Shown: in pieces, positions 1,263 through 55,755 of the stretch
Layout: the number at the start of each line of letters is the position of its first letter
How positions within the stretch are numbered: the first letter of the stretch is position 1
Source of the DNA: Amphiscolops sp. MND2022
Taxonomy: Eukaryota
DNA: 64,000 nt
Direction: 5' to 3'
Assembly (NCBI GenBank): GCA_964187785.1
Contig: OZ076409.1
Location: 72,852,001-72,916,000 of the forward strand
The notes under the pieces: model-generated
The model's input: only the letters and a program-made list of their open reading frames with translations
Database searches by the model: none
Told to the model about the DNA's origin: nothing
Program-made: the position numbers and the translations under genes

Positions 1263-1295
1263 GCCAAATAGCGCCACAGGGCGCAAACATTCCCG

Positions 1296-1302
1296 CTAGG
1301 TG
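1296..1302 (+). other. Cassette junction heptamer CTAGGTG (representative of 46)
   Basis: Invariant at every unit boundary while both flanks vary. Confidence 0.93.
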
Positions 1303-3545: not shown

Positions 3546-3588
3546 GAGTACATTTCATCTCCCTTTCGGGGGAGATGAGAATGTACTC
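3546..3588. repeat. Class-A subterminal long hairpin (representative)
   Basis: GAGTACATT-TCATCTCCC...GGGAGATGA-G-AATGTACTC, about 19-bp stem with one bulge, about 190 nt upstream of the core. Confidence 0.92.
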
Positions 3589-30726: not shown

Positions 30727-32147
30727 CTAGGTGGTCGGGTATTTTTTTTTACTCGTATATGACGTTTGCGAGGCTTTGGGGAGGGCCCCGTGCCGAGCCT
30801 GTACCGAAATTGGCCACATGTAGAAATCTGGCACTAAAATGCGAGATCTCAAAAAGTAGCCGTTAAAAATGTCTGAAAATTTGCATGTGGCTCTGAATCA
30901 ATGAGTAATGAAAAAGTGTAGAAGTGACCACCTCTGAAAAAAATTGTCCTTGTTGCACTTTTTGCGCAATTTTTGTCGCATTGTTGCGTTTTTTATGTCA
31001 TTTTCGACTTTGGAGGCAAAAAACTCATAGATGCTTTGTTCCTAGCGTACCAAGTGTGGAGCACGAAAAGTTGCAGCATCTTCAATTACGTATGCTGAGA
31101 AAATTTGGTTGCCCTATGGTTACCCCCCACAGAGATAGAAGGGTGCTTCCGGTTACTTTTGACCCGCTAAGTTTGGGAAACTGCTAATTTTCGTAAAGAA
31201 GCCGTAGATTTAGCGTGTCCACCCCCTGCTGAAGTATTGTTAGTCATTTTAAGATAGATCCGATGACATGCGTTCAGTTCACCCCCATCACCCCCTGGAC
31301 CGGAAATGCACTTATTTGTGTACTTTCAGACCGGAAGTCTCCATTTTCACCGGTATTAGGTCCTTGTATGAGCAACTAGCAGGACATCAAAGTTAAAGTA
31401 CAAACTGGGGTTAACTTAGTGACCACGTGCTGTCCAGTCATGGGTTCCGCTATTACCGGAAATGGGTTCAAAACCCCCCTTTTGGTCTGTTTTTCATCAA
31501 TTTGACTAGTGTTTGGTCCACATTCAAGTCGCGCAAGGCAGTTGCAACAGTTTGAGCTCAAACTGCATGTTAACTGCGTAGATGTAACTGACAATGTCAG
31601 ATACCGGAAGTAACCCTCTGTGACCGGAAGTTGTCATTTTTGAGCGGAAGTGGTCCAAAAAGTAGAGTAAATGCAGTTTTTCACTGCTTTTTAAGGCAAA
31701 GTTATTACTTTTTTCTATTAAAGTTATTACCTTTTTCTATCTTATTGTTTTTTTCTACTCACAAAACTTACATTGTAGCTTGTTTGGCTAAAGTTCTGGA
31801 AAATGATTACCTTTATCACCCCAGATAGCCTTCCAAGTTGACCTTGGGTCAATCTTGAAGGCTATCTGTTCTGAAAACGAAAAATAGTGGAAATTGGGTT
31901 TCTCGTTTCTCGTTGTTTATTTTTCCATAAAGTTAATTTGTTAAATAAGGCTTTTGTTCAATTGAGTGATCTGAAATTTGTCCAGAGGTGTCACACAGAC
32001 GAATACCATTTCAAGTTGAAGTAAACATTTGATGGTAATATTAGACAACATCACACACACTTACCAACGCCCACCGTCCGTGGGCATGCCGAGGCATGCC
32101 CTTCGACGACGTATGCCAAATAGCGCCACAGGGCGCCCCTACATTCT
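30727..32147 (+). mobile_element. Class-B cassette (1421 bp)
   Basis: Bounded by CTAGGTG at 30727 and 32148; body rich in ACCGGAA(G/A)T; GATAGCC hairpin at 31824-31866; clearly homologous to 55756-57145. Confidence 0.6.
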
Positions 32148-33446
32148 CTAGGTGGCCACGACCATGGTTTCTTGCGTATCTTGTCGAATCTTTTGTCGTT
32201 GCCGGCCGGGGAGGGACCCGTTTGCCGGCGTGTGTAGTGTGGGGCCCCCATACCCAAAAAGTGGTATTTTTTTCAGAGATCTCAAAATCGGCCCATCAGA
32301 ATTGCCTGAAATTTGGCATGAGGCTCCCAATTGGGGAAAAAATAAGAAGTGTAGGAGGCGACTTGTTCGGGTAAATATTGTATGTTGACTTTTGGCCAAA
32401 ATAGTGTTCCCCCCCCAACATGGGCAAAATCACATGAGGTGTAAAAATATGATCACAACTTTTGAACCTTTGGATTTAGGGGTACGGTCGTGGACCACAT
32501 TAAGCAAGAGCTTTGGTGAGCGGGTAGGATAGATGGGTTTTGATCCCAGTACCTTCAACCACTTTTGAGAAATTAACGTTTCAAACAAACATCCGGGAGG
32601 TATATGTTGCCCCTGAAGGCAGTTTTTTCGCCATTTTCAATGTGAAGGAGTGGGTTTAGCGCAACGTGTGTGGGGTGCTTTTTTGTTGCCCGTGTGCGGA
32701 GCGTTGTATAGAGGTGCTGGTTGTTGAAATTGGAAAAGTTGGTAAAAAGTTATACCTATACCCCCCCTACTGTCTCTGCCATTCAATTTTTTTTTCGACT
32801 TCAGGCCTCCCAAAGGTGAGAAACTTCCACACAACTAGTATTGCAAGTGAATGCATGTGGAAAGTACTCGGATAGACGAGAAAAATGAGCTATAGAACGA
32901 CTCTGTAGCTTAACTTGACGTTGACTTATGACATTTTGAGTGTGAGCTTGCTATGTGAGAAAAAAATTCAAAATTGAAAATCGACGCTAAGTCTCATCCA
33001 AAACTCATCGAAATACGTTCAATCCATCCCAAAGCGGATTAATTCCAGATATATAGTGCAGCAACACTATTCAAGACCATTTGACACAATTTTACTAGTT
33101 TTGACATTGTATTATTCATCCGAGAGCACAAAACAGTTGGGTACATTCCATCTCCCTTTCGGGGGAGATGAGAATGTACCCGCTAAATGACACGCACCAT
33201 GGCCTAATTTTTACCTTTATGCGACGTTTTCTAGGCTTTCGCGCAAGCCCACTAAAATTTAGACTGGTTTCCTTTTCTTTTACTCCAAAATTTTCCGTAC
33301 TAACCACCTTACACACCACCAGCTCAACGTAACATCTGTAACGTCAACGCCACACACTCTCACTAACGCCCACCGTCCGTGGGCATGCCGAGGCATGCCC
33401 TTCGACGACGTATGCCCGTTGTCACAACAGGGCGCCCCTACATTCT
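32148..33446 (+). mobile_element. Chimeric cassette (1299 bp): unique 5' half plus class-A 3' half
   Basis: Lacks the class-A central block; TGTGAAGGAGTGGG at 32641 is shared with class C; from about 32800 it matches class-A 3' modules, and its terminal region matches unit 1 (about 1031-1260). Confidence 0.6.
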
Positions 33447-34834
33447 CTAGGTGGTTGGGGCGGTCCCCAGAACGCACAAGGAGGCGCGGGGAGGGTCCTG
33501 CGCCGACGTAGAATAATTTCATATAATACTAGTATCCTACATGGGTGTTTTAGAGGCGATTTTGGAATCTAACCGTAGGATTTGGATAATTTTTTGCATG
33601 CGGCCATAACTCGAAATTCTAAGAACTTTTTCCTTCTGTCATTTTCCCCGCAAATTGTTTTTTGTTGACTTATGGCCGAAAAACCGGAAATAACGTCCTT
33701 TTTAGACGTTATATCCGAAGTGTCGTCATAACTTTTTTCCAGGGCATGCTAGCGTTCTCGTTCACTTTTACACTTAGTTGCAGCATCTCAAAATACAACT
33801 GGTGGAAATTTTTGGCTGCATTCGGATCACCCCCCACCGAGATAGAAGGGTTCCCCCCTCCAGTTTTACCCCCCAAATTTGCAAAATAGTCAATTTTGAG
33901 CATGAAGCCGAGGATTTAGCGTACCCGCACCCTCCTGATGTTTTGTTGTACGTATTGGGGTCAATCTGACGACATGTGTGGTTTTCACCCCCAACCCCCC
34001 CTTGGACCGGAAATGACACTTTTTTGTGTTTTTTGGCAGAATTTAGCCTTTTTCATTATTAGGCAGTCGTTTTAGGGACTCCTAGCAGGATATCGAAATT
34101 GAAATACAACCTGATCACAACCCAGTGACAACATGTTGGCCACTTGGAGGTATCATCATGACCGGAAGGGAGGTCAAACCCCCCTTTTTGTGACCGCTTT
34201 TTGACCTCGTGCACAAAACACCAACAACGTGAGGCCTAATGACGCATTCAAATCTGTACAAAGATACAACGTTAGACAACCGAAGTCCCGGAAGATCTTT
34301 AGCATATACCGGAAGTTACCCCCATGACCGGAAGTTACCCAATGTGACCGGAAATGGTCCAAAAATTAATGTAAAGTTGATTTTTTCACTATTTCAAGAC
34401 CACTTAATTGAAACTTTTCAATCTCAAAACTAGCGTACTGGCTTGTTTTGCTGAATTTATGGAAATTGATGAGCTCTATCGCCCCCGATAGCCTTCGAAG
34501 TTGACCTTGCGTCAACTTTGGAGGCTATCGATAAAGAAAAATGAACAACAAAGTACATTGTTGCTCTCGTTTTTTTCCCGTTGTTTTTCCTCAAACATTC
34601 TTGAGACATATACATGGCCGTTAGTTGAAATCAATATTTAGCCCATGTTATAGCTGGAGCAGCGAAGCGTTACACAGACTAGTGTGGTTTTGAAATCACA
34701 CTATTTAAATTAACAACTGACCGTCTTAGTCAACTCCACACATTCATACCAACGCCCACCGTCTGTGGGCATGCCGAGGCATGCCCTTCGACGACGTATG
34801 TCGAATCCATTCCAACGACACCCGCAGTCCTCAG
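33447..34834 (+). mobile_element. Divergent class-B cassette (1388 bp)
   Basis: CTAGGTG boundaries; patchy similarity to 30727-32147 (GTTGCAGCATCT, CCCCCAC.GAGATAGAAGGGT, GATTTAGCGT, CTAGCAGGA); GATAGCC hairpin at 34487-34529. Confidence 0.6.
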
Positions 34835-37800
34835 CTAGGTGGCCGGAAATTTTTTTTTCAGCAAAATCTTTGCCATTGGGGGAGGGGCCCCGGATGGCCA
34901 GTAGTACGGCATAGCTCCCTACAGAATCCAGGCGGAAAAAACGTGATTTCGGAAACTAGCCGTCAGAATTTGCTCAAAATTTGCATACGGCTTCCTATGA
35001 CAATCCTAAGAACTAATCCCTACTGGCATTTTGCCCAAAAAACGCAAAAAGTTGGTCAAAATCTTAGTTTTTTGGTCAAAAAATGGCGTTTTTTCGAAAA
35101 AAAATTTTTTCAGAGACAATTACTCGTAACTGGTTCACCCAGCGCAAAAACGCCTAGCTGATTTATTGTTGGGCACTTCATGAGGAGTGCGTATACAAAT
35201 TTTCGTCTAAATCGGATGAAAGTTGATTGAGAAATAACTGAAAATTTGAGGCATTTTTTTGGAAATTTTTGAAATCCCAGTCTATCTCTGCCGTTTTTTG
35301 CCCAGATTTTTTTCCAGACACTCTCCTAAAGACCTCCCCTGGCCGGTTTACCTCCCAGCAAAACCATTTGGCCCTAAATACGGAGTTTCAGCATTCCAGC
35401 AAACCCCGGGTAAAAGATAAATGACTTAGAATTTTTTCGAAAAATTTTCAAAAATTTTTTTTTTCAAATTCAGGCCTCCTAAAGTAAAGAAACTTCCACA
35501 CAACTAGGATTGCAAGTGATAGCATGTGGAAAGTGCTTGAATAGACGAGAAAAATGAGCTGTTATACGACTCTGTAGCTTAACCTGACGTTGACTTATGA
35601 TAATTTTAGTGTGAGCTTCGTTTGTGCTTAAAAAATTAAAAAAACCTAAAAGTCTTTTTAAGGTAATCAGGATACGTCCAATCAACCCCAGAGCTGTTAT
35701 ATTGCCGTTGTGTAGTAGAGCAACACCATTTAGAGTGTTTTGACCCATTTTGACAAGTTTTGATACAGTCTTGTTCATCCAATAGCTTAAAACAGTTGAG
35801 TACATTCCAACTCCCCCCTTGTGGGGGAGATGAGAATGTACTCGCTACAAGTCAGGTACTATAGCGCCCATTTTGTTTTATTCGACGCTAGTGATGCTAT
35901 TGCACACGAATACAATAGTTTTGTCAAATCATGTTTGACATGATGAATCTTACTTTACCTTTAATTTACGTTTACCTACTACTACAACATCGCATCCCTG
36001 ACGTCAACGCCACATACTCGCATCAACGCCCACCGTCCGTGGGCATGCCGAGGCATGCCCTTCGACGACGTATGCCAAATAGCGCCACAGGGCGCAAACT
36101 TGTCCGCTAGGTGGCCGTGTCTTTTCGACGTGCTTTTGCATTGAGGAGTGGGTAGGGCCCCGCGACGACCTAGAAGAATTGGATGCTCACCGAAACGTGC
36201 AGAATTCTACGAGATCTCATAGTTTGAGCCATACGATTTTTCTGAAATTTGGCATGTGGCCTGGAATTGGTGAGTAGGTAAAACGTGTAGGAGGTGATTT
36301 TTCCCAAATTCCACTGTGAGACGAGATATGGGCAAATAACGGTCCCAAAAATGGCAAAAATGCACATTTTTCAACTTTGTCAGCCCATATCTCGTTCCCA
36401 GGTGCCCGGAGCGGGACGCGTTAAGCTGATTTAAAACTCTAGGGTGTTGAGGCTGTACGGGGAAGTCAGGCCCGTTCCGATCGGACTTGTAGTCTTGGAG
36501 AAATAACGGTATTTTTGGGGAACCTTTTCTAACGGTCCAGCTTATCTTTGCCATTTTTTCGAAAATGTACTCGCCTAAAGGCCTCCCCCTGGCCGAATTT
36601 ACTCCCAGCAAAACCATTTGGCCCTAAATACGGAGTTTCAGCGTTCCAGCATTCCCGGGCGAAAAGTTGTGGGACTTGGAAAATTTTCAAAAATTTTCAA
36701 AAATTTTTTTTTCGTTTTTCGGGCCCCCAATGAAGGGGAAACGACCCCCCAACCAGTATTTTGAGTGAATTCATGTGGAAAGCCCTTGTTTTGACGAGAA
36801 AAGTACCGTTTAGAACATCTTTTTATCTTGACTCAACGTTGACTTATGACGTTTTGAATGTGATGTAAGGATGTAGGAGGCATGTGATAAGTTGATGTTT
36901 TGAGTCTTTATCTCATATGAAAGCGGTTGAGATGCAAGCTGTCCTGCTCAAAACGTCTTTCGTTGTAATTTTCCAGTGCACCAATACCCTTTGGTGTCAT
37001 ATAAACATACGTTTCGTTGATATATTAACAATTTTAATGTATTTATTCCAATTTTTATTATCTTTTAACTCAAAACAGTTGAGTACATTTCATCTCCCTT
37101 TCGGGGGAGATGAGAATGTACTCGCTAAAGACCTAGCGCCATGACCAAAAGTTTGAAACCCACGTTTTTTATCTTCTTACAGACTTGTTTTTGTATTTTT
37201 TCGGAATTTTTTAAAAATTAATATACTTGAAATACATTACTTGACTTTACTACTACAATCCACCTCCAACGTCAACGCCCCCTTGCTTGCATCAACGCCC
37301 ACCGTCCGTGGGCATGCCGAGGCATGCCCTTCGACGACGTATGCCAAATGCCCAGTGCCACGCAGTCATTATCGCTAGGTGCCGGGATTTCTATTCGATA
37401 AAGTATGTGGCGCGTGTGGGTAGGGTCCCTGGCGCGCTCTTGGGTATGGTGTTCACCAGCTAGGAAATAGGGGTCGATTTTTCGGGATCTCCTAAACTAG
37501 CCACACGATTTGGCTGAAATTTGGCACACGTACTCCCCTCGGCACGGTGAAGATGATTTCCTACTGACGTTTTTCCCGCAAAATTTTTTTTGTTGTCCAA
37601 AATAACGGTTTTTGGGGTAAAATTTTGAACTTTTTTTAAATTTCATCCTATATCTCGCCACGGGTTTACGCTAGCGCTTCAAAACCCTGCTAAAGAAAGC
37701 TTGCAAACTGTCTCAGGAATGCAGTGTGAAATTTTCAGCTCAATCGGACTTAAACTCAGGGAGATATAGCGTTTTTCCGGAGCGGGGGGGTTTCATTTTT

Positions 37801-39947
37801 CTAACGGTCCAGCTTATCTTTGCCATTTTTTCGAAAATGCACTCGCCTAAAGGCCTCCCCTGGCCGGTTTTATTCCCAGCAAAACCATTTGGCCCTAAAT
37901 ACGGAGTTTCAGCGTTCCAGCATTCCCGGGCGAAAAGTTGTGGGACTTAGAAAAGTTCAAAAATTTTCAAAAATTTTTTTTTCCGTTTTCCGCCCTCCCC
38001 CCCTAGGGGAAAAGACCCCCCAACCAGTAATTTGAGTGAATTCATGTGGAAAGGCCATGTTTAGAGGAGAAAAATGCCGTTTAGAACGTCTTTTTATCTT
38101 GGCTCAACGTTGACTTATGACGTTTTGAAGGTGATGTTTGGAGGTGTAAAGCACGTGAATAGTAAACGTTATGAGTATTTATCTGATCTGAAAGCCATTG
38201 AGATGAATATGGTTTGCTCAAAACGTAATTCATGGCAGTTTGGCAATCAATCAACACCCTTTGTTGTCGTTTGACATACTTTTTTGATGTTATAATAAAA
38301 AATTTTGTGTATTTATTCATTTTTTTCTCATCAAATAACTTGAAACAGTTGAGTACATTCCATCCCCCCTTCACGGGGGAGATGAGAATGTACTCGCAAA
38401 AAGCCCCAAACTACGGCCCTTACCTTCCTGAGCTACGCAGTATAAAGATTGCATATTGGTTCCGACATTTTCATAGAGTTATATCTTGGTAATCTGTCTG
38501 GGTATGCAGAAAAACCAGCACGTGCTTTTTTATAACAAGTTGCTTACAACGACAATTATTTTATATCAACGCCCCCATATTTATCAACGCCCCCCGTCCG
38601 TGGGCATGCCGAGGCATGCCCTTCGACGACGTATACCAAGATATGTTCGAGCGCGTTAGCCTAGGTGCCGGGATTTCTATTCGATAAAGTATGTGGCGCG
38701 TGTGGGTAGGGTCCCTGGCGCGCTCTTGGGTATGGTGTTCACCAGCTAGGAAATAGGGGTCGATTTTTCGGGATCTCCTAAACTAGCCACACGATTTGGC
38801 TGAAATTTGGCACACGTACCCCCCTCGGCACGGTGAAGATGATTTCCTACTGACGTTTTTCCCGCAAAATTTTTTTTGTTGTCCAAAATAACGGTTTTTG
38901 GGGTAAAATTTTGAATTTTTTTTAAATTTTATCTTATATCTCGCCACCGGTTTACGCTAGCGCTTCAAAACCCTGCTAAAGAAAGCTTGCAAACTGTCTC
39001 AGGAATGCGTTGTGAAATTTTCAGCTCAATCGGACTTAAACTCGGGGAGATATAGCGTTTTTCCGGAGCGGGGGGGTTTCATTTTTCTAACGGTCCAGCT
39101 TATCTTTGCCATTTTTTCGAAAATGCACTCGCCTAAAGGCCTCCCCTGGCCAGTTTTATTCCCAGCAAAACCATTTGGCCCTAAATACGGAGTTTCAGCG
39201 TTCCAGCATTCCCGGGCGAAAAGTTGTGGGACTTAGAAAAGTTCAAAAATTTTCAAAAAATTTTTTTTCCGTTTTCCGCCCTCCCCCCCTAGGGGAAAAG
39301 ACCCCCCAACCAGTAATTTGAGTGAATTCATGTGGAAAGGCCATGTTTAGAGGAGAAAAATGCCGTTTAGAACGTCTTTTTATCTTGGCTCAACGTTGAC
39401 TTATGACGTTTTGAAGGTGATGTTTGGAGGTGTAAAGCACGTGAATAGTAAACGTTATGAGTATTTATCTGATCTGAAAGCCATTGAGATGCAATATGAT
39501 TTGCTCAAAACGTAATTCATGGCAGTTTGGCAATCAATCAACACCCTTTGTTGTCGTTTGACATACTTTTTTGTTGTTATAATAAAAAATTTTTTGTATT
39601 TATTCATTTTTTTCTCATCAAATAACTTGAAACAGTTGAGTACATTCCATCCCCCCCTTCCGGGGGAGATGAGAATGTACTCGCAAAAAGCACCGAACTA
39701 CGGCCCTTACCTTCCCGAGCTACGCAGTATAAGGATTACATATTGGTTCCGACATTTTCATAGAGTTAAATCTTGGTAATCTGTCTGGATATGCAGAAAA
39801 ACCAGCACGTGCTTTTTTATACCAAGTTGCTTACAACGACAATTATTTTATATCAACGCCCCCATATTTATCAGCGCCCCCCGTCCGTGGGCATGCCGAG
39901 GCATGCCCTTCGACGACGTATACCAAGATATGTTCGAGCGCGTTAGC
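34835..39947 (+). mobile_element. Block of 4 class-A cassettes
   Basis: Junctions at 34835, 36107, 37375, 38661 and 39948; class-A central block and hairpin present in each. Confidence 0.6.
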
Positions 39948-39984
39948 CTAGGTGCGGGGGGGTAACCCCTACAAAGATATTGGA

Positions 39985-40008
39985 GGATTCGGGTAGGGTC
40001 CTGAATCC
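39985..40008. repeat. Head hairpin displaying GGGTAGGGTCC (representative)
   Basis: GGATTC-GGGTAGGGTCCT-GAATCC; the AGGG lies 47 nt after the C of CTAG; an equivalent motif occurs at essentially every unit head. Confidence 0.85.
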
Positions 40009-41463
40009 GATCTTAGTACCGTCAGCTATCAGTAGAAAATTTCCCTCAAAAACCGGGATCTCGGGAACTAACCGTAGGATTTGAAAGTTGGAGCGGCCCC
40101 CAGCAGATTTTCCCAAATAGATCGCCCCCCACCGGGCTCCATACCCCGGAAAATTTTTTTTTGGCCACACGGGCGACTGTTAGGGGGTCATTTTAGGGGT
40201 AAAATTCATATTGGTCCATATAACTTTTTTTCTGTTGGTTTAAAAGTTTGGGAACCCTACTAAAGGTTTTTCGACCATGTTGCAAGGGCTCCGGAGGTGC
40301 AAACCAAATTTTTCTATCTTGAAGCTATCTCCAAGTACCCCCCCGCTCAAACCGTTATTTTTCCGGAAACGCAGGTTTTTGACCCGGAAGGAGTCGTCTG
40401 AGCGCGGGGTCGTTAGGTGATGTTTTGGGGACGGCCTTGAGACGAAGTGGGGGACATGTAGTTTGCCAACCTCAGTTTACCCCCCGGACGGGAAATGACC
40501 GTTATATCAGCGGGAAAAATGCCCCCCTCCACGTTTTACCGCTATTTCCGGTGTGAAGGAGTGGGAGTAGCTCGTCGGGTGCCATATATCAAAAGTAGGT
40601 TCAGACAAGGACCTATCGGAAACATGTGGTTTGGGACCCCCTGACCCAACCCGTTAGCGGGAAATGGGGCTTCCGCCTCCTTTTTTTACGGTTAAAAACG
40701 GAAAATGGGCATTGAGGGATAAATATCTCGTGAACGCGTGGAGCTACGGTGTCCTTCACTACTACAAGGTTTCATACCCATGATATGGTGCCTTCAGGGG
40801 GGCAAACAGATTTCCGCTATCTATCACCGTTACGGACTTGGCCCCCCAGCCTAACCGCTATGTGACCGGAAATGTCACTTTTTGAGCCCAAAGGGTCGGT
40901 CCCAGCCAGGGAACGTTAGATAACTTATTGTAGTACTCATTGAGACGAGTTGGGGGACATAGTTTCAGTCACCCCCGTTACCCCTTGGGACCGGAAATGA
41001 CCGTTATGTGGGTAAAATTGGGATTTTTGTACTTTTTGAAGGGCAATTAGGTGCGGAAGGAGTGGTAATAGTTGCTTGGACACTATATGATGGAAGGGAG
41101 GACGTGAGGCGAACATTCGGACATAACCGTTATGTTGACCCTAAAGTCCCCCTGGTACCGTAAACGACCGGAAAGGGTCAAATTTTGTGTCTATTGGGTA
41201 CAAATGTTTGGTATTTTGTAAATAAAAGTATCTATTAGGTGTTTCGACGGTCTGCAGTAGTGAACATAGTCATGAAACCTTGTCGGGGGGTAACGGTATA
41301 TAGCACCGGAAGTCCAAACCGTTAGAGACGGGATAGGTTTTTTCGTTTTAAAATGTCTTTCGGCGTACTTTTGTCAACCAATATGGAATATTTTTTAAAA
41401 TTAAAGTTTTTCCATATAGTTTCAGAGACTCCCAAACCTCAAACAACATAACCGTTACCTTAT

Positions 41464-41507
41464 GATAGCCTTTCAAGTTGGCCTGGTGTCAACTTGGAAG
41501 GGCTATC
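41464..41507. repeat. Class-B/C subterminal long hairpin (representative)
   Basis: GATAGCCTTTCAAGTTGGC-CTGGT-GTCAACTTGGAAGGGCTATC, 19-bp stem with G-T pairs and one bulge. Confidence 0.92.
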
Positions 41508-44500
41508 CTTCAAAAATCGTTGATCAAGTGTGTTTTTGGGTATGTTTGAATCATTTTAGAATCAATTAGAGCTTCAAGAAAAATTTGCCAACGACAAAAA
41601 CTATGTCGTGATGATTCCGTTATTAGAGTAATAGTTAACAAAATGTTGATAAAGTTGATTTTGTACATTTCAAATGTGTACTTTATGCCAGAAAACCTTT
41701 TTACCAAACTAATGATATTGATTGAATTGTATATAACAGGTAATAAAAGTTCAAATTGAATATTACGTTTCATTTTGTAAGCTGAAACGTGATATTATAG
41801 TTTAATTAACGTCAACGCCACATACTTTACATCAACGCCCACCGTCTGTGGGCATGCCGAGGCATGCCCTTCGACGACGTATACCAAACAACCTCCAGAT
41901 CTACACCCACCCGCGGTAGCAGCTAGGTGCGGGGGGGAAACCCCAACAAAATTTTTGGAGGATTCGGGTAGGGTCCTGAATCCGAGTTCAGTGCTGCCAG
42001 CTTTCGTTAAGAAAATTTGGATAGGATTCGGGATCTCGTGATCTAACCATAGGATTTTAAAGTTGGAGCGGCCCCCACCAGATTTTCCGAAAATTAGCGC
42101 CCCCCACCGGGTTCCATACCCCGGAAAATTTTTTTCTGGCCACACGGGCGACCGTTAGGGGGTCATTTTAGGGGTAAAATTCATATTGGGCCACATAACT
42201 TTTTTTCTGTTGATTTAAAACTTTGGGACCCTGCTAAAAGTTTCTTGACCGTGTTGCAGGGGCCCCGGAGGTCCAAACCAAATTTTTCTATCTTGAAGCT
42301 ATCTCCAAGTACCCCCCCGCCCAAAACGTTATTTTTCCGGAAACGCAGGTTTTTGACCCGGAAGGAGTCGTCGGAGCGCGGGGTCGTTAGGTGATGTATT
42401 GGGGACGGCCTTGAGACGAAGTGGGGGACATGCAGTTTGCCAACCCCAGTTTACCCCCCGGACGGGAAATGACCGTTATATGAGCGGGAAAAATGCCCCC
42501 CTCCACGTTTTACCGCTATTTCCGGTGTGAAGGAGTGGGAGTAGCGCGTCGGGTGCCATATATCAAAAGTAGGTTTAGACAAGGATCTATCGGAAACATG
42601 TGGTTTGGGACCCCCTGGACCAACCCGTTAGCAGAAAATGGGGCTTCCGGCCCGTTTTTTACGGTTAAAAACGGAAAATGGGCATTGAGGGGTAAATATC
42701 TCGTGAACGCGTGGAGCTACGGTGTCCTTCACTACTACAAGGTTTCATACCCATGATATGGTGCCTTCAGGGGGGCAAACAGATTTCCGCTATCTATCGC
42801 CGTTACCGACTTGGCCCCCCAGCCTAACCGCTATGTGACCGGAAATGTCACTTTTTGAGCCCAAAGGGTCGGTCCCAGCCGGGGAATGTTAGGTAACTTA
42901 TTGTAGTGCTAATTGAGACGAGTTGGGGGATATAGTTTCAGTCACCCCCCGTTACCCCTTAGGACCGGAAATGACCGTTATGTGGGTAAATTTGCTTTTT
43001 TTGTACTTTTTGGAGGGCATTTAGATGCGGAAGGAGCGGTAATAGGTGCTTGGACACTATATGATGATAGGGAGGACGTGAGGCGAGCTTACGGAATTAA
43101 CCGTTATGTTGACCCTAAAGTCCCCCTGGTACCGGAAGTGACCCGTAATGGTCAAATTTTGTGTTTAAAGGGTACAAATGTTTGGTGTTTTATGGATAAC
43201 AGTGCCTATTAGGTGTTTCGACGGTCTGCATTCGTGAACATAGTCATGAAACCTTGTGGGGGGGTAACGGTATATAGCACCGGAAGTCCAAACCGTTGGA
43301 GACAGGATAAGTTTTTTGGTTTTAAAAAGTCTTTCGGCCTTCTTTTGTCGACTATTATGGACTATTTTTGGAAAATAAAGTTTTTCCATATAGTTTCAGA
43401 GACTCCGAAACCTCAACCAACATAACCGTTACCTTATGATAGCCTTTCAAGTTGGCCTGGTGTCAACTTGGAAGGGCTATCCTTCAAAAATCATTAATCA
43501 AGTGTGTTTTTGAGTATGTTTGTATTACTTTAGAATCAATTAGAGATTCAAGAAAAGGTTGCCAACGACAAAAACTATGTCGTGATGATTCCGTTATTGG
43601 AATAATAGTTAATAAAATATTGATAAAGTTGATTTTTTACATTTTAAATGTGTTCTAAATGCCAGAAAACTTCTTTACCAAACAAATGGAATTGATTGAA
43701 TTGTATATAACAGCTAATAAAAGTTCAAATCGAATATTACGTTTCATTATGGAAGCTGAAACGTCAAATTATAGTTTAATTAACGTCAACGCCACATACT
43801 TTACATCAACGCCCACCGTCCGTAGGCATGCCGAGGCATGCCTTTCGACGACGTATACCAAATTCCACCCACACAACACCCCCGAGCGCGGTAGCAGCTA
43901 GGTGCGGGGGGGAAACCCCAACAAAATTTTTGGAGGATTCGGGTAGGGTCCTGAATCCGAGTTCAGTGCTGCCAGCTTTCGTTAAGAAAATTTGGATAGG
44001 ATTCGGGATCTCGTGATCTAACCATAGGATTTTAAAGTTGGAGCGGCCCCCACCAGATTTTCCAAAAATTAGCGCCCCCCACCGGGTTCCATACCCCGGA
44101 AAATTTTTTTCTGGCCACACGGGCGACCGTTAGGGGGTCATTTTAGGGGTAAAATTCATATAGGGCCACATAACTTTTTTTCTGTTGATTTAAAACTTTG
44201 GGACCCTGCTAAAAGTTTCTTGACCGTGTTGCAAGGGCTCCGGAGGTCCAAACCAAATTTTTCTAGCTTGAAGCTATCTCCAAGTACCCCCCCGCCCAAA
44301 ACGTTATTTTTCCGGAAACGCAGGTTTTTGACCCGGAAGGAGTCGTCTGAGCGCGGGGTCGTTAGGTGATGTTTTGGGGACGGCCTTGAGACGAAGTGGG
44401 GGACATGTAGTTTGCCAACCCCAGTTTACCCCCCGGACGGGAAATGACCGTTATATGAGCGGGAAAATTGCCCCCCTCCACGTTTTACCGCTATTTCCGG

Positions 44501-47500
44501 TGTGAAGGAGTGGGAGTAGCGCGTCGGGTGCCATATATCAAAAGTAGGTTTAAACAAGGATCTATCGGAAACATGTGGTTTGGGACCCCCTGGACCAACC
44601 CGTTAGCGGGAAATGGGACTTCCGCCTCCTTTTTTTACGGTTAAAAACGGAAAATGGGCATTGAGGGGTAAATATCTCGTGAACGCGTGGAGCTACGGTG
44701 TCCTTCACTACTACAAGGTTTCATGCCCATCATATGGTGCCTTCAGGGGGGCAAACAGATTTCCGCTATCTATCACCGTTACGGACTTGGCCCCCCAGCC
44801 TAACCGTTAAGTGACCGGAAATGTCATATTTTGAGCCCAAAGGGTCGGTCTCAGCCAGGGAACGTTAGGTAACTTATTGTAGTACTCATTGAGACGAGTT
44901 GGGGGACATAGTTTCAGTCACCCCCCGTTACCCCTTAGGACCGGAAATGACCGTTATGTGAGTAAAATTGCCATTTTTGTCCTATTTGAAGGCCATTTAG
45001 ATGAGGAAGGAGTGGTAATAGGTGCTTGGACACTATATGAGGTAAGGGAGGACGTGAGGCGAGCATTCGGACATAACCGTTATTTTGACCCTAAAGTCCC
45101 CCTGGTACCGTAAACGACCGGAAATGGTCAAATTTTGTGTCTATTGGGTACAAATGTTTAGTATTTTGTAGATAAAAGTATCTATTAGGTGTTTCGACGG
45201 TCTGCAATAGTGAACATAGTCATGAAACCTTGTGGGGGGTAACGGGGTATATAGCACCGGAAGTCCAAACCGTTGGACACAGGATAGGTTTTTGGTTTTA
45301 AATTGTCTTTCGGCGTACTTTTGTCGACTATTATGGACTATTTTTTGAAAATTAAAGTTTTTCTATATAGTTTCAGAGACTCCGAAACCTCAACCAACAT
45401 AACCGTTACCTTATGATAGCCTTTCAAGTTGGCCTGCTGGCAACTTGGAAGGGCTATCCTTCAAAAATCGTTAATCAAGAGTGTTTTTGGGTAGGTATAT
45501 ATTCAATTAGTACCAATTAGAGCTTCATCAACAGTGTATCAACGACAAAAACTAAGCCGTCATGATTCCGTTGTTAGAATAGTAGTGAGCTAATTGTTGA
45601 CAAAAATATTTTTTTTATACAAAATGTGTCCTAAATGCCAGGAAACCTATTTACCTAACAAATGGTATTGATTGGAATGTATGTAACCTATTTATAAAAG
45701 TTCAAATTGATTATTACGTTTCATTATGGAAGCTGAAACGTCATATTTCAGTTTAATTAACGTCAACGCCACATACTTTACATCAACGCCCACCGTCTGT
45801 GGGCATGCCGAGGCATGCCCTTCGACGACGTATACCAAATACATACCCAACGACGCCCGTACATCCCGGGCTAGGTGCGGGGGGGAAACCCCAACAAAAT
45901 TTTTGGAGGATTCGGGTAGGGTCCTGAATCCGAGTTCAGTGCTGCCAGCTTTCGTTAAGAAAATTTGGATAGGATTCGGGATCTCGTGATCTAACCATAG
46001 GATTTTAAAGTTGGAGCGGCCCCCACCAGATTATCCGAAAATTAGCGCCCCCCACCGGGTTCCATACCCCGGAAAATTTTTTTCTGGCCACACGGGCGAC
46101 CGTTAGGGGGTCATTTTAGGGGTAAAATTCGTATTGGGCCACATAACTTTTTTTCTGTTGATTTAAAACTTTGGGACCCTGCTAAAAGTTTCTTGACCAT
46201 GTTGCAGGGGCCCCGGAGGTCCAAACCAAATTTTTCTAGCTTGAAGCTATCTCCAAGTACCCCCCCGCCCAAAACGTTATTTTTCCGGAAACGCAGGTTT
46301 TTGACCCGGAAGGAGTCGTCGGAGCGCGGGGTCGTTAGGTGATGTATTGGGGACGGCCTTGAGACGAAGTGGGGGACATGCAGTTTGCCAACCCCAGTTT
46401 ACCCCCCGGACGGGAAATGACCGTTATATGAGCGGGAAAAATGCCCCCCTCCACGTTTTACCGCTATTTCCGGTGTGAAGGAGTGGGAGTAGCGCGTCGG
46501 GTGCCATATATCAAAAGTAGGTTTAAACAAGGACCTATCGGAAACATGTGGTTTGGGACCCCCTGGACCAACCCGTTAGCGGGAAATGGCGCTTCCGCCT
46601 CCTTTTTTTACTGCTAAAACCGTAAAATGGGCATTGAGGGGTAAATATCTCGTGAACGCGTGGAGCAATCGTGTCCTTCACTACTACAAGGTTTCATGCC
46701 CATCATATGGTGCCTTCAGGGGGGCAAACAGATTTCCGCTATCTATCACCGTTACCGACTTGGCCCCCCAGCCTAACCGCTATGTGACCGGAAATGTCAC
46801 TTTTTAAGCCCAAAGGGTCGGTCCCAGCCGGGGAACGTTAGGTAACTTATTGTAGTACTCATTGAGACGAGTTGGGGGACATAGTTTCAGTCACCCCCCG
46901 TTACCCCTTAGGACCGGAAATGACCGTTATGTGAGTAAAATTGCCGTTTTTGTCCTATTTGAAGGGCATTTATATGCGGAAGGAGTGGTAATAGGTGCTT
47001 GGACACTATATGAGGTAAGGGAGGACGTGAGGCGAGCATTCAGACATAACCGTTATGTTGACCCCAAAGTCCCCCTGGTACCGTAAACGACCGGAAATTG
47101 TCAAATTTTGTGTCTATTGGGTACAAATGTTTGGTATTTTGTAAATAAAAGTATCTATTAGGTGTTTCGACGGTCTGCAGTAGTGAACATAGTCATGAAA
47201 CCTTGTCGGGGGTAACGGTATATAGCACCGGAAGTCCAAACCGTTAGAGATGGGATAGGTTTTTTCGTTTTAAAATGTCTTTCGGCGTACTTTTGTCAAC
47301 TAATATGGAATATTTTTTAAAATTAAAGTTTTTCCATATAGTTTCAGAGACTCCCAAACCTCAACCAACATAACCGTTACCTTATGATAGCCTTTCAAGT
47401 TGGCCTGGTGTCAACTTGGAAGGGCTATCCTTCAAAAATCGTTGATCAAGTGTGTTTTTGGGTATGTTTGAATCATTTTAGAATCAATTAGAGCTTCAAG

Positions 47501-50500
47501 AAAAGTTTGCCAACGACAAAAACTATGTCGTGATGATTCCGTTATTAGAGTAATAGTTAACAAAATGTTGATAAAGTTGATTTTTTACATTTCAAATGTG
47601 TCCTAAAAGCCAGAAAACCTCTTTACCAAACAAATGGTATTGATTGGATTGTATATAACAGGTAATAAAAGTTCAAATTGATTATTACGTTTTATTATGT
47701 AAGCTGAAACGTCATAATATAGTTTAATGAACGTCAACGCCACATACTTTACACCAACGCCCACCGTCTGTGGGCATGCCGAGGCATGCCCTTCGACGAC
47801 GTATACCAAATACATTTCATATCTACACCCACCCGCGGTAGCAGCTAGGTGCGGGGGGGTAACCCCTACAAAGATATTGGAGGATTCGGGTAGGGTCCTG
47901 AATCCGATCTTAGTACCGTCAGCTATCAGTAGAAAATTTCCCTCAAAAACCGGGATCTCGGGAACTAACCGTAGGATTTGAAAGTTGGAGCGGCCCCCAC
48001 CAGATTTTCCCAAATAGATCGCCCCCCACCGGGCTCCATACCCCGGAAAAATTTTTTTTGGCCACACGGGCGACTGTTAGGGGGTCATTTTAGGGGTAAA
48101 ATTCATATTGGTCCATATAACTTTTTTTCTGTTGGTTTAAAAGTTTGGGAACCCTACTAAAGGTTTTTCGACCATGTTGCAAGGGCTCCGGAGGTGCAAA
48201 CCAAATTTTTCTATCTTGAAGCTATCTCCAAGTACCCCCCCGCTCAAACCGTTATTTTTCCGGAAACGCAGGTTTTTGACCCGGAAGGAGTCGTCTGAGC
48301 GCGGGGTCGTTAGGTGATGTTTTGGGGACGGCCTTGAGACGAAGTGGGGGACATGTAGTTTGCCAACCTCAGTTTACCCCCGGACGGGAAATGACCGTTA
48401 TATCAGCGGGAAAAATGCCCCCCTCCACGTTTTACCGCTATTTCCGGTGTGAAGGAGTGGGAGTAGCTCGTCGGGTGCCATATATCAAAAGTAGGTTCAG
48501 ACAAGGACCTATCGGAAACATGTGGTTTGGGACCCCCTGACCCAACCCGTTAGCGGGAAATGGGGCTTCCGCCTCCTTTTTTTACGGTTAAAAACGGAAA
48601 ATGGGCATTGAGGGATAAATATCTCGTGAACGCGTGGAGCTACGGTGTCCTTCACTACTACAAGGTTTCATACCCATGATATGGTGCCTTCAGGGGGGCA
48701 AACAGATTTCCGCTATCTATCACCGTTACGGACTTGGCCCCCCAGCCTAACCGCTATGTGACCGGAAATGTCACTTTTTGAGCCCAAAGGGTCGGTCCCA
48801 GCCAGGGAACGTTAGATAACTTATTGTAGTACTCATTGAGACGAGTTGGGGGACATAGTTTCAGTCACCCCCGTTACCCCTTGGGACCGGAAATGACCGT
48901 TATGTGGGTAAAATTGGGATTTTTGTACTTTTTGAAGGGCAATTAGGTGCGGAAGGAGTGGTAATAGTTGCTTGGACACTATATGATGGAAGGGAGGACG
49001 TGAGGCGAACATTCGGACATAACCGTTATGTTGACCCTAAAGTCCCCCTGGTACCGTAAACGACCGGAAATGGTCAAATTTTGTGTCTATTGGGTACAAA
49101 TGTTTGGTATTTTGTAAATAAAAGTATCTATTAGGTGTTTCGACGGTCTGCAGTAGTGAACATAGTCATGAAACCTTGTCGGGGGGTAACGGTATATAGC
49201 ACCGGAAGTCCAAACCGTTAGAGACGGGATAGGTTTTTTCGTTTTAAAATGTCTTTCGGCGTACTTTTGTCAACTAATATGGAATATTTTTTAAAATTAA
49301 AGTTTTGCCATATAGTTTCAGAGACTCCCAAACCTCAAACAACATAACCGTTACCTTATGATAGCCTTTCAAGTTGGCCTGGTGTCAACTTGGAAGGGCT
49401 ATCCTTCAAAAATCGTTGATCAAGTGTGTTTTTGGGTATGTTTGAATCATTTTAGAATCAATTAGAGCTTCAAGAAAAATTTGCCAACGACAAAAACTAT
49501 GTCGTGATGATTCCGTTATTAGAGTAATAGTTAACAAAATGTTGATAAAGTTGATTTTGTACATTTCAAATGTGTCCTTTATGCCAGAAAACCTTTTTAC
49601 CAAACTAATGATATTGATTGAATTGTATATAACAGGTAATAAAAGTTCAAATTGAATATTACGTTTCATTTTGTAAGCTGAAACGTGATATTATAGTTTA
49701 ATTAACGTCAACGCCACATACTTTACATCAACGCCCACCGTCTGTGGGCATGCCGAGGCATGCCCTTCGACGACGTATACCAAACACCCTCCATATCTAC
49801 ACCCACCCGCGGTAGCAGCTAGGTGCGGGGGGGAAACCCCAACAAAATTTTTGGAGGATTCGGGTAGGGTCCTGAATCCGAGTTCAGTGCTGCCAGCTTT
49901 CGTTAAGAAAATTTGGATAGGATTCGGGATCTCGTGATCTAACCATAGGATTTTAAAGTTGGAGCGGCCCCCACCAGATTTTCCGAAAATTAGCGCCCCC
50001 CACCGGGTTCCATACCCCGGAAAATTTTTTTCTGGCCACACGGGCGACCGTTAGGGGGTCATTTTAGGGGTAAAATTCATATTGGGCCACATAACTTTTT
50101 TTCTGTTGATTTAAAACTTTGGGACCCTGCTAAAAGTTTCTTGACCGTGTTGCAGGGGCCCCGGAGGTCCAAACCAAATTTTTCTAGCTTGAAGCTATCT
50201 CCAAGTACCCCCCCGCCCAAAACGTTATTTTTCCGGAAACGCAGGTTTTTGACCCGGAAGGAGTCGTCGGAGCGCGGGGTCGTTAGGTGATGTATTGGGG
50301 ACGGCCTTGAGATGAAGTGGGGGACATGTAGTTTGCCGACCTCGGTTTACCCCTCGGACAGGAAATGACCGTTATATGAGCGGGAAAAATGCCCCCCTCC
50401 ACGTTTTACCGCTATTTCCGGTGTGAAGGAGTGGGAGTAGCGCGTCGGGTGCCTTATATCAAAAGTAGGTTTAGACAAGGACCTATCGGAAACATGTGGT

Positions 50501-53500
50501 TTGGGACCCCCTGGCCCAACCCGTTAGCAGAAAATGGGGCTTCCGGCCCGTTTTTTTACGGTTAAAAACGAAAAATGGGCATTGAGGGGTAAATATCTCG
50601 TGAACGCGTGGAGCTACGGTGTCCTTCACTACTACAAGGTTTCATACCCATGATATGGTGCCTTCAGGGGGGCAAACAGATTTCCGCTATCTATCACCGT
50701 TACGGACTTGGCCCCCCAGCCTAACCGTTAAGTGACCGGAAATGTCATATTTTGAGCCCAAAGGGTCGGTCTCAGCCAGGGAACGTTAGGTAACTTATTG
50801 TAGTACTCATTGAGACGAGTTGGGGGACATAGTTTCAGTCACCCCCCGTTACCCCTTAGGACCGGAAATGACCGTTATGTGAGTAAAATTGCCATTTTTG
50901 TACTTTTTGAAGGGCATTTAGGTGCGTAAGGAGTGGTAATAGGTGCTTGGACACTATATGAGGTAAGGGAGGACGTGTGGCGAGCATTCAGACATAACCG
51001 TTATGTTGACCCTAAAGTCCCCCTGGTACCGTAAACGACCGGAAATGGTCAAATTTTGTGTCTATTGGGTACAAATGTTTGGTATTTTATGGAATAAAGT
51101 ACATGGAAGGTGTTTCAAAGGCATCCAGAAATGAACATAGTCATGAAACCTTGAGGGGGGTAACGGTATATAACACCGGAAGTCCAAGCCGTTGGACACA
51201 GTATAGGTTTTTGGGTTTTAAAATGCTTATGAACGTACATTTGTGGGTTGAATTGTTCTAATATTGACTATTTTCGATATTTTTTGACATTAAAGGTTTT
51301 TCCAATAGTTTCAGGGACCTCCAAAGCTTCAATCAACATAACCTTTACATTATGATAGCCTTTCAAGTTGGCCTGGTGTCAACTTGGAAGGGCTATCCTT
51401 CACAAATCGTATATCAAGTGTGTTTTTGAGTAGGTTTTTATCACTTTAGTATCAATTAGAGCTTAATCATTAGTTTGCCAACGACAAAAACCATGTCGTG
51501 ATGATTCCGTTAGTAGAAGAATAGTTAACAACTTGTTGACAAAGTTGATTTTTTGCATTTAAAATGTTTCCTAAATGCCAGGAAAACGATTTACGTTATA
51601 AATGGTACTGATTGACCCAAATAACAGTTAAAAAAAGTTAAACATTATTTTTTCGTTTCATTATAGAAGCTGAAACCTCACGTTTTAACTTAATTAACGT
51701 CAACGCCACATACTTTACATCAACGCCCACCGTCTGTGGGCATGCCGAGGCATGCCCTTCGACGACGTATACCAAAATCCAATATATCTACACCCGATTG
51801 CGGTAGCAGCTAGGTGCGGGGGGGAAACCCCAACAAAATTTTTGGAGGATTCGGGTAGGGTCCTGAATCCGAGTTCAGTGCTGCCAGCTTTCGTTAAGAA
51901 AATTTGGATAGGATTCGGGATCTCGTGATCTAACCATAGGATTTTAAATTTGGAGCGGCCCCCACCAGATTTTCCGAAAATTAGCGCCCCCCACCGGGTT
52001 CCATACCCCGGAAAATTTTTTTCTGGCCACACGGGCGACCGTTAGGGGGTCATTTTAGGGGTAAAATTCATATTGGGCCACATAACTTTTTTTCTGTTGA
52101 TTTAAAACTTTGGGACCCTGCTAAAAGTTTCTTGACCGTGTTGCAAGGGCTCCGGAGGTCCAAACCAAATTTTTCTATCTTGAAGCTATCTCCAAGTACC
52201 CCCCCGCCCAAAACGTTATTTTTCCGGAAACGCAGGTTTTAGACCCGGAAGGAGTCGTCTGAGCGCGGGGTCGTTAGGTGATGTTTTGGGGACGGCCTTG
52301 AGACGAAGTGGGGGACATGTAGTTTGCCGACCTCGGTTTACCCCTCGGACAGGAAATGACCGTTATTTGAGCGGGAAAATTGCCCCCCTCCACGTTTTAC
52401 CGCTATTTCCGGTGTGAAGGAGTAGGAGTAGCGCGTCGTGTGTTATATATCAAAAGTAGGTTTAGACAAGGATCTATCGGAAACATGTGGTTTGGGACCC
52501 CCTGGACCAACCCGTTAGCAGGAAATGGGGCTTCCGGCCCGTTTTTTTACGGTTAAAAACGGAAAATGGGCATTGAGGGGTAAATATCTCGTGAACGCGT
52601 GGAGCTACGGTGTCCTTCACTACTTCAAGGTTTCATACCCATGATATGGTGCCTTCAGGGGGGCAAACAGATTTCCGCTATCTATCACCGTTACCGACTT
52701 GGCCCCCCAGCCTAACCGCTATGTGACCGGAAATGTCACTTTTTGAGCCCAAAGGGTCGGTCCCAGCCGGGGAACGTTAGGTAACTTATTGTAGTACTCA
52801 ATGAGACGAGTTGGGGGACATAGTTTCAGTCACCCCCCGTTACCCCTTGGGACCGGAAATGACCGTTATGTGGGTAAAATTGCAATTTTTATACTTTTTC
52901 AAGTGTATTTAGGTGCGGAAGGAGTGGTAATAGGTGCTTGGACACTATATGAGGTAAGGGAGGACGTGAGGCGAGCATTCGGAAATAACCGTTATGTTGA
53001 CCCTAAAGTCCCCCTGGTACCGTAAACGACCGGAAATGGTCAAATTTTGTGTCTATTGGGTACAAATGTTTGGTATTTTGTAAATAAAAGTATCTATTAG
53101 GTGTTTCGACGGTTTGCAGTAGTGAACATAGTCATGAAACCTTGTGGGGGGTAACAGTATATAGCACCGGAAATCCGAACCGTTGGAGACAGGATAGGTT
53201 TTTTGGTTTTAAAATGTCTTTCGGCGTACTTTTGTCGACTATTATGGACTATTTTTAAAAATTATAGTTTTTCCATATAGTTTCAGAGACTCCGAAACCT
53301 CAACCAACATAACCGTTACCTTATGATAGCCTTCCAAGTTGGCCTGGTGTCAACTTGGAAGGGCTATCCTTCAAAAATCGTTAATCAAGTGTGTTTTTGG
53401 GTATGTTTTTATCATTTTAGAATCAAATAAAGCTCCAAGAAAAGTTTGCCAACGACAAAAACTATGTCGTGATGATTCCGTTATTAGAATGATGGTTAAC

Positions 53501-55755
53501 AAAATGTTGATAAAGTTGATTTTTTACATTTCAAATGTGTCCTAAAAGCCAGAAAACCTCTTTACCAAAAAAATGGTATTGATTGAATTGTATATAACAG
53601 GTAATAAAAGTTCAAATTGATTATTACGTTTCATTATTCAAGCTAAAACTTCATAACATAGTTTAATTAACGTCAACGCCACATACTTTACATCAACGCC
53701 CACCGTCTGTGGGCATGCCGAGGCATGCCCTTCGACGACGTATACCAAATACATACCTAACGACGCCCGTACATCCCGGGCTAGGTGCGGGGGGGAAACC
53801 CCAACAAAATTTTTGGAGGATTCGGGTAGGGTCCTGAATCCGAGTTCAGTGCTGCCAGCTTTCGTTAAGAAAATTTGGATAGGATTCGGGATCTCGTGAT
53901 CTAACCATAGGATTTTAAAGTTGGAGCGGCCCCCACCAGATTTTCCGAAAATTAGCGCCCCCCACCGGGTTCCATACCCCGGAAAAATTTTTTTTGGCCA
54001 CACGGGCGACCGTTAGGGGGTCATTTTAGGGGTAAAATTCATATTGGGCCACATAACTTTTTTTCTGTTGATTTAAAACTTTGGGACCCTGCTAAAAGTT
54101 TCTTGACCGTGTTGCAGGGGCCCCGGAGGTCCAAACCAAATTTTTCTATCTTGAAGCTATCTCCAAGTACCCCCCCGCCCAAAACGTTATTTTTCCGGAA
54201 ACGCAGGTTTTTGACCCGGAAGGAGTCGTCTGAGCGCGGGGTCGTTAGGTGATGTATTGGGGACGGCCTTGAGACGAAGTGGGGGACATGTAGTTTGCCG
54301 ACCCCTGTTTACCCCCCGGACGGGAAATGACCGTTATTTGAGCGGGAAAAATGCCCCCCTCCACGTTTTACCGCTATTTCCGGTGTGAAGGAGTGGGAGT
54401 AGCGCGTCGGGTGCCATATATCAGAAGTAGGTTTAGACAAGGACCTATCGGAAACATGTGGTTTTGGACCCCCTGGACCAACCCGTTAGCGGGAAATGGG
54501 GCTTCCGCCTCCTTTTTTTACTGCTAAAACCGTAAAATGGGCATTGAGGGGTAAATATCTCGTGAACGCGTGGAGCTACGGTGTCCATCACTACTACAAG
54601 GTTTCACACCCATGATATGGTGCCTTCAGGGGGGCAAACAGATTTCCGTTATCTATCACCGTTACGGACTTGGCCCCCCAGCCTAACCGCTATGTGACCG
54701 GAAATGTCACTTTTTGAGCCCAAAGGGTCGGTCTCAGCCAGGGAACGTTAGGTAACTTATTGTAGTACTCATTGAGACGAGTTGGGGGATATAGTTTCAG
54801 TCACCCCCCGTTACCCCTTGTGACCGGAAATGACCGTTATGTGGGTAAAATTACGATTTTTGTACTTTTTGAAGGGCAATTAGGTGCGGAAGGAGTGGTA
54901 ATAGGTGCTTGGACACTATATGAGGTAAGGGAGGACGTGAGGCGAGCATTCGGAAATAACCGTTATGTTGACCCTAAAGTCCCCCTGGTACCGTAAACGA
55001 CCGGAAATGGTCAAATTTTGTGTCTATTGGGTACAAATGTTGGGTATTTTGTAGATAAAAGTATCTATTAGGTGTTTCGACGGTCTGCAGTAGTGAACAT
55101 AGTCATGAAACCTTGTGGGGGGGTAACGGTATATAGCACCGGAAGTCCAAACCGTTGGTGACAGGATAGGTTTTTTGGTTTTAAAATGTCTTTCGGCGTA
55201 CTTTTGTTGACTATTATGGACTATTTTTAAAAATTAAAGTTTTTCCATATAGTTTCAGAGACTCCGAAACCTCAACCAACATAACCGTTACCTTATGATA
55301 GCCTTTCAAGTTGGCCTGGTGTCAACTTGGAAGGGCTATCCTTCAAAAATCGTCAATCAAGTGTGTTTTTGGGTATGTTTGTATCATTTTAGAATCAATT
55401 AGAGCTTCAAGAAAAGTTTCCCAACGACAAAAACTATGTCGTGAAGATTCCGTTACTAGAATTATAGTTAGCAAATTGTTGAGAAAAATGTTTTTTTTTC
55501 CAAATTAAATGTGTCCTAAATGCCAGGAAACCTATTTAACTAACAAATGGTATTGATTGGAATGTATGTAACAGATTTATAAAAGTTCAAATTGATTATT
55601 AAGTTTCATTATGGAAGCTGAAACGTAATATTTTAGTTTAATTAACGTCAACGCCACACACTTTACATCAACGCCCACCGTCTGTGGGCATGCCGAGGCA
55701 TGCCCTTCGACGACGTATACCAAATACATACCTAACGACGCCCGTACATCCCGGG

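Follow-up and report, generated by a model that had tools for sequence, protein, structure and literature searches.

A near-invariant palindrome, flagged in an earlier note, belongs to the right end of discrete, gene-less units that follow one another head to tail through a stretch of Amphiscolops sp. MND2022 DNA (64,000 nt of contig OZ076409.1, called the window below). The units meet at an exact shared joint, CTAGGTG, their ends are structured, and outside a block of long units neighbouring units are unlinked at the boundary. Judging from this anatomy, we see about an even chance that the units are non-autonomous rolling-circle (HUH, Helitron-like) elements, which would be served by a transposase in trans and insert at existing end-to-end junctions. 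The palindrome is likely a subterminal recognition or pause signal of such a putative element.

The array and its unit families

The array consists of 45 complete non-coding units (14..63534), all in one orientation on the + strand, and a partial 46th unit extends to 64000. Thirty-seven of the units are 1262-1421 bp long and eight are 1971-1991 bp long. The eight 1.97-kb units (U32-U39) form one block on the + strand at 39952..55759 and are 89-99.6% mutually alike. Apart from the end block, junction and head loop, they have little in common with the short classes; an internal hairpin is also shared with some of these. Family identities span 99.8% down to about 45-55% (global), and the latter are near unalignable. 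Common to all families are the right-end block, CTAGGTG, a GGG(T/G)AGGG(T/C)CC block and a 44-nt internal hairpin.

Searches of the window found no tRNA and no Rfam match at the gathering score, with none better than E 1.1 in 40000-46000. None of the 15 ORFs tested, out of 36 in the window, passed the Pfam cut-off, and neither a poly(A) nor a truncated unit was found among the 45. CpG is not depleted in the window (o/e 0.99). Tandem Repeats Finder, with a period limit of 500, reported short arrays only. The unit bodies presumably resemble those of animal non-autonomous transposons.

The order of the units is non-random. The eight long units are contiguous (p 1.8e-7), and neighbouring units are more alike than chance even without the long units (p 0.013). 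U15-16 resembles U19-20 (99.4%, 98.5%), and a 2494-bp, 99.5% duplicate (39948-42441 and 47845-50337) begins precisely at one junction, crosses the following one and extends about 500 bp beyond it. Near-identical monomers are also found among different neighbours (U11/U19, 99.8%; U2/U29, 98.8%). The units are mosaics with internal breakpoints as well, and match ends cluster internally (at about +100, +280, +320 and +480 to +600) as high as they do at the junction. Any of three processes could account for the non-random order and the mosaics: addition of units in time order, read-through or ordinary recombination.

In the long units (39952-55759), variable columns per 100 rise from about 5-15 at the head to about 30-50 at the right end. 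This polar divergence could be due to polar copying from the junction or to weaker constraint in the AT-rich part. Related contigs from sequencing run X1 show the same head-to-right-end trend (98% then 91%). Among the matches listed for this run (share 0.16), related contigs of the 1.97-kb class have 11 differences in 504 nt and 56 in about 655 nt, and the run also has a further tail ending in CTAG. X1 was the one sequencing run listed with matching sequence, no RNA run being among those listed, and under the bridging rule applied none of its records spans the junction. The long class carries an old internal duplication, 69% alike, at 42313-42482 and 42815-42984 (387-556 and 889-1058 of U33), and contains several internal TAGGTG motifs, which might be relic junctions. 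Over the whole window, the + strand contains 119 AGGTG motifs, 73 of them internal, and the - strand contains 12.

The CTAGGTG junction

The flagged variant of the palindrome is carried by unit U33 (41927..43901, + strand), and the junction CTAGGTG that bounds this unit is found at 43898..43904 (+). The + strand contains 46 copies of CTAGGT, one at each boundary, and CTAGGTG sits 39-58 nt 3' of the palindrome in 45/45 units. The earlier note had likened the repeats and hairpin near a CTAG end to a rolling-circle origin or terminator or to a recombinase recognition site. A putative recognition signal near a CTAG end is supported: the block around the palindrome is common to near-unalignable families, and the boundary lies downstream at this distance. 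A crossover at the palindrome itself is contradicted by the linkage results below.

Identical tails were found before unrelated heads. One 20-nt tail end stands before four different head sequences (U13, U30, U31, U42 and U44), and identical tails precede unrelated heads in U38 vs U39 and in U25 vs U26 as well. The class switches U31/U32 and U39/U40 fall within CTAGGTG. Since identical tails are joined to unrelated heads, the switch occurs within seven shared bases, which are too few for homologous recombination.

Linkage between adjacent markers was calculated with 36 units; U31-U39 were dropped because the long units form a block. Base-level linkage over CTAGGTG was absent (AMI 0.00, p 0.48), and the other seven adjacent marker pairs gave AMI 0.28-0.59 (p 0.0005). 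With all 45 units there was residual linkage over the junction (AMI 0.14, p 0.0065; Mantel 0.31). At equal gaps, similarity carried over within units in 48/66, 40/55 and 39/44 pairs, and over the block plus the junction in 5/45, which is background (base 0.07, p 0.17). Eight of 426 high-identity self-matches span a junction. Linkage across the palindrome is retained (AMI 0.32-0.42, p 0.0005), and the -9C/+33G combination is seen in 0/14. Because linkage is kept over the palindrome and absent over the junction, the exchange point is the junction and not the palindrome. The central GA of the palindrome was therefore rejected as a recombinase crossover site.

Terminal inverted repeats, a feature of DDE transposons and MITEs, were found in none of the units. 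A ligation artefact was rejected as the origin of the joints because the units share one orientation, CTAG occurs 160 times in the window, and the same layout is present in a relative, L023. This 1172-bp metagenome contig has a body about 70% alike to the short units and the same anatomy in the same order, with CGAGGTG in place of CTAGGTG. Among the 26 loci in the scan of metagenome contigs, L023 is the one true relative; the other 25 match the motif alone and were taken as chance. Four scans of viral contigs with the core and end motifs gave 0, 0, 2 and 0 stretches, and the two matches are motif-only and due to chance. One motif-only match in the genome contigs was likewise taken as chance, and one short-class unit had no match among phages and plasmids. 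A chance motif match in a viral contig (L029, 1-1701) has one open frame of 567 aa.

Structured ends of the units

The conserved right-end block (43812..43852, +) is near-invariant at paired and unpaired positions alike and recurs in families whose bodies barely align. Its core palindrome is present in the G..C form, GGGCATGCC-GA-GGCATGCCC, exactly in 44/45 units, all on the + strand, with 0.01 matches expected by chance. The 45th unit, U33, has the A..T form, AGGCATGCC-GA-GGCATGCCT, at 43824..43843, a double variant that keeps pairing. The palindrome is thus preserved in all classes, as the earlier note had said, and the variant it had described as changed in both arms is present. The proposed count of single-arm versus paired changes, made over the 45 copies in the window, gave 0 single-arm changes and 1 paired change. 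The stem was also said to continue past a 3x3 internal loop, and CGTC (43817-20) and GACG (43847-50) are indeed unchanged in 45/45. In folding, the 9-bp stem with a 2-nt loop is replaced by an 8-bp stem with a CGAG tetraloop on either strand (z -2.3 to -3.4 in 5/5 folds), and the core folds slightly better on the - strand. The alternative hairpin GCCCAC..GTGGGC that had also been suggested is intact in just 28/45 units and broken in the flagged copy; it was discarded as a conserved switch.

The double change is weak evidence for structure. It is a single pair, and the unpaired block bases (GT, CGAG, TTC and the A after GACG) are likewise invariant in 45/45, so the invariance is not specific to the arms. 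A hairpin and a double-stranded dyad cannot be told apart from a single compensatory pair. For two changes that fall at random in the 20-mer, simple arithmetic gives a chance of about 1.6% (9/190 x 1/3) that they form a complementary pair. Hairpin-templated repair can yield such a paired change without selection. The earlier note had raised a one-off repair of this kind, which is unlikely in the flagged copy: L023 and U33 are identical at 51/51 bases over the block, the A..T pair included, so A..T is likely a standing allele. At 43821, U33 also departs from its 7 class-mates, with C in place of their T; the C matches L023 and most short units. U33 has its own tail. The A..T form is probably old, a symmetric variant that has been tolerated and was acquired by U33 through right-end exchange, and it may have originated in a single mutational event. 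Taken alone, the compensatory pair is a modest, minor observation.

The same 20-mer was found in L001, L003, L004, L011, L012, L014, L020, L022 and L024, which are unrelated, mostly bacterial-looking contigs. In those bacterial-looking contigs it forms a hairpin like that of a terminator, with runs of A or T beside it, and the matches are due to chance. Several further 20-mer matches fall in coding sequence and are also due to chance.

Two AACGCC copies lie at 43788..43793 and 43808..43813 (+), the first of which is often degenerate in other units. Two exact copies within 50 nt are present in 33/45 units, with a spacing of 18, 19 or 20 nt (9, 11 and 13 copies). A third, degenerate CAAC is found near -55 in about half of the copies. 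The CAAC motifs, at -17, -36 and -55 from the core, are 18-20 nt apart and about 75-115 nt in from the end. The repeat pair had been described as about 20 nt apart, or two helical turns. The pair itself is there in the 33 units; the spacing is below two helical turns and not fixed, and with the first copy often degenerate, a reading as iterons phased at two turns is unsupported.

The hypervariable tail from the block to the junction (43853..43897, +) goes with the upstream unit at family switches. By eye, no conserved hairpin was seen in the tails, and a small hairpin about 9-12 nt before CTAG was seen in a few of them only (U1, U21, U25, U28 and U40). Some tails (e.g. 6398-6429, 10256-10286 and 20506-20538) resemble micro-mosaics of short modules with switches at CCAA and GCGCG, which suggests short-patch exchange beside the junction. 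Upstream of the block in the long units, a 13-bp stretch (43791-43803) is the reverse complement of part of one short-class head type (e.g. 5124-5160). The two sides of this match fall in different units, so it does not form an ATIR.

The left ends also fold. About 40 nt after the junction lies the GGG(T/G)AGGG(T/C)CC block, a fixed loop between stems that differ by family yet pair. In the next unit, U34, this head hairpin (43935..43958, +) has a GGATTC/GAATCC stem, and the other stems are GCCAT/ATGGC, GCCAC/GTGGC, GCGCG/CGCGC, AGGCT/AGCCT, GCCGGC/GCCGGC and GGCGC/GCGCC. For eight unrelated heads, the true left-right stem assignment was the best of 40320, and 15 families gave p 5e-6. In one head family, the H2 type (7 units), the outer stem is nearly absent. 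Of 25 head-hairpin variants, 21 fold better on the + strand, and the + strand there is G/T-rich. Pairing in the heads survives complete sequence change, which points to a folded single strand or a cruciform and not to a double-stranded dyad. The head hairpin is better structural evidence than the palindrome pair.

The internal 44-nt imperfect hairpin (43438..43481, +) has a stem of about 19 bp. A GATAGCC type is found in the 1.97- and 1.4-kb classes, and an unrelated GTACATT type is found at a like place in the 1.27-kb classes and in L023. Among 13 copies of one type, pairing holds in 96% of cells, and 3 pairs have changed on both sides. This covariation was reached by 2/500 shuffles, a comparison in which related sequences can exceed shuffles.

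Known elements, rival explanations and a proposed mechanism

Helitron1 elements are described with 5'-TC, a 3' CTRR, a palindrome of 16-20 nt lying 10-12 nt short of the 3' end and insertion between A and T without a TSD, and Helitron2 elements with hairpins at both ends, an 8-15 bp ATIR, T-rich termini and a TT target (PMC3627910, PMC5148889, PMC4067079, PMC11417382). Autonomous partners of both types encode RepHel. The units are like Helitron1 (HLE1, e.g. Helraiser) in their CTAG 3' end, which is present at 46/46 boundaries (L023 has CGAG), their GC-rich 20-nt subterminal palindrome and the absence of a TIR. Precise head-to-tail joints and a right end more conserved than the left are further likenesses. 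Unlike Helitron1, the units start with GTG, which follows CTAG at 46/46 boundaries, and no boundary has a TC start on the other strand. The palindrome is 39-58 nt from the end in 45/45 units, compared with 10-12 nt; a hypervariable tail follows it, and the left-end hairpin covaries. Hairpins at both ends are shared with Helitron2 (Helentron/HINE, HLE2; FoHeli), with the head hairpin weak in the H2-type family, and the 3' hairpin of FoHeli1/2 is given as 38-51 bp from the end (PMC5148889). Unlike Helitron2, the units have no ATIR: the longest own inverted match has a mean of 6.2 nt vs 6.55 nt with shuffled heads, and 2/45 reach 8 nt. The left hairpin is about 35-55 nt inside, off the terminus, and the boundary lies in CTAGGTG with no T run. 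The units work most like a Helitron, yet fit neither the Helitron1 nor the Helitron2 definition and should not be filed under either.

Tandem and adjacent Helitrons are known (PMC12001565, PMC4067079, PMC13404089, PMC11934779). Distantly related Helitrons are reported to adjoin directly at times, and some Helitron arrays are ascribed to terminator bypass (PMC4067079). The array here differs in having 45 full units of mixed families; the Xenopus arrays described have 2-7 units (PMC12001565). Replitrons, as presented in PMC10288648, are similar in their non-autonomous members near 1 kb, conserved ends of about 50 bp, right-end hairpin, short terminal motif and orientation-specific insertion. Unlike those of Replitrons, the tails here are family-related and not copied host flank, and the cited parts of that source describe no tandem cassette arrays. 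The single 7-bp core shared at each junction could correspond to the short direct repeat at both Replitron termini.

A tyrosine recombinase acting on Crypton-like or integron-like cassettes is an unlikely alternative. Circles would excise and recombine joint by joint over 5-7 bp of C(T/G)AGGTG, which would be a single shared terminal direct repeat, and the hairpins would be accessory binding sites. This agrees with the exact exchange inside a 7-bp core, the single orientation without duplication or gap, and the retention of AGGTG, not CTAG, in L023. Long bulged hairpins of variable sequence recall the attC sites of integrons, and gene-less or independent units stacked in one orientation are a likeness to Crypton and bacterial integron arrays. 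Cryptons are described without TIRs, with 4-6 bp terminal direct repeats and a proposed circular movement (PMC3212892); the units also have no TIR and a short shared core, and C(T/G)AGGTG may be such a repeat. However, tyrosine recombinase sites usually consist of a 6-8 bp spacer between inverted repeats of 11-13 bp (PMC3212892), and the 3 bases flanking the core are complementary at only 3/45 junctions. Unlike in Crypton or integron arrays, the core is not flanked by inverted binding sites, attC boxes were not noted, and the window contains no recombinase gene. The near-identical copies in several slots would also need a copying step. An IS607-like serine recombinase is very unlikely, whether crossing over at the GG of CTA-GG-TG or at the palindrome, taken as two half-sites around a 2-bp asymmetric GA. 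Such elements, without TIRs or TSDs and with a GG crossover, are reported to occur in eukaryotes (PMC6188088, PMC3627910). The GG is unchanged at every junction, that of L023 included, the right end contains short direct repeats, and GG is among the positions at which the switch may lie within the 7 bp. Nevertheless, IS1535 motifs are given as 9 bp long, helically phased and 20-60 bp from the end (PMC6188088), compared with two or three CAAC motifs, spaced by 18-20 nt and about 75-115 nt in, here. Hairpin covariation is left unexplained, and the palindrome crossover conflicts with the linkage kept across it.

The covarying stems could instead reflect RNA. Structured-RNA genes or retro-copies (spliced-leader-like, Pol III RNA, or a non-autonomous retroelement whose copies are added singly, as telomeric retrotransposons are in their arrays) would make the hairpins RNA structure, with splicing or cleavage at the AG/GT of the junction. 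In line with this are the G-T pairs in + strand stems, AG/GT at every junction and T-runs soon after many junctions, but we consider it improbable given the lack of Rfam matches, tRNAs, poly(A) and truncated units. Moreover, the sequence that follows GT is variable with a high GC content, and some heads, as well as L023, lack T-runs. A tRNA or primer-binding-site reading did not fit by eye. A plain long-unit satellite would arise by unequal crossing-over and gene conversion, with the block as a conversion sink and the double change as one hairpin-templated repair. The internal mosaics, the contiguous long-unit block, the few dimer duplications and the equal invariance of paired and unpaired block bases are what such a satellite would give. 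Family switches inside 7 bp with linkage lost exactly there, head-hairpin stems that covary across unrelated families, and the same ends in a 70%-alike relative elsewhere make it highly improbable; as the whole story it is largely refuted.

For the rolling-circle elements that we favour, Helraiser offers a guide. It is reported to nick the plus strand, use a 3' hairpin as a terminator, form circles with precise RTS-LTS joints, and cleave such joints (PMC4778049, PMC5876387). A transposase would nick the + strand at a junction and peel off a single unit, at times continuing into the one that follows. The right-end block would slow the transposase, the cut would be made at CTAG, and the circle would close with a right-end/left-end joint. 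The chromosomal joint, identical to the circle joint, would carry both recognition hairpins and be the preferred place for nicking and insertion. Owing to this resemblance, it would be a favoured target, and the array would grow as a cassette stack of mixed families with no gap or duplication. Internal mosaics would be added by ordinary recombination between resident units. Homing to junctions is our inference and does not come from the Helraiser literature. No transposase or recombinase gene was found in the window, nor a flank or an empty site, so the enzyme is a guess from anatomy. The strand of action may be either one, the head hairpin favouring + and the core slightly -.

More tentatively, the units may represent a so far undescribed kind of eukaryotic mobile element, structured at both ends, which would home to its own junction by means of an HUH enzyme or a tyrosine recombinase and stack tens of gene-less cassettes of many families into arrays like those of integrons. 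The literature searched gave no description of a long, mixed, junction-targeted eukaryotic array and no occurrence of five motif strings; Repbase, Dfam and supplements were outside the search, and the family may be catalogued.

If the proposal is true, site-specific insertion at a 7-bp joint would assemble large satellite-like DNA one cassette at a time. This would be an alternative to unequal crossing-over, or rolling-circle read-through of one element, as the sole builders of satellites. The natural end variants in the array, which number dozens, define the requirements of the enzyme, namely an invariant right-end block and a left hairpin with a fixed loop and a free stem. A junction-homing eukaryotic transposase, if true, would be a precise, scar-free integration tool.
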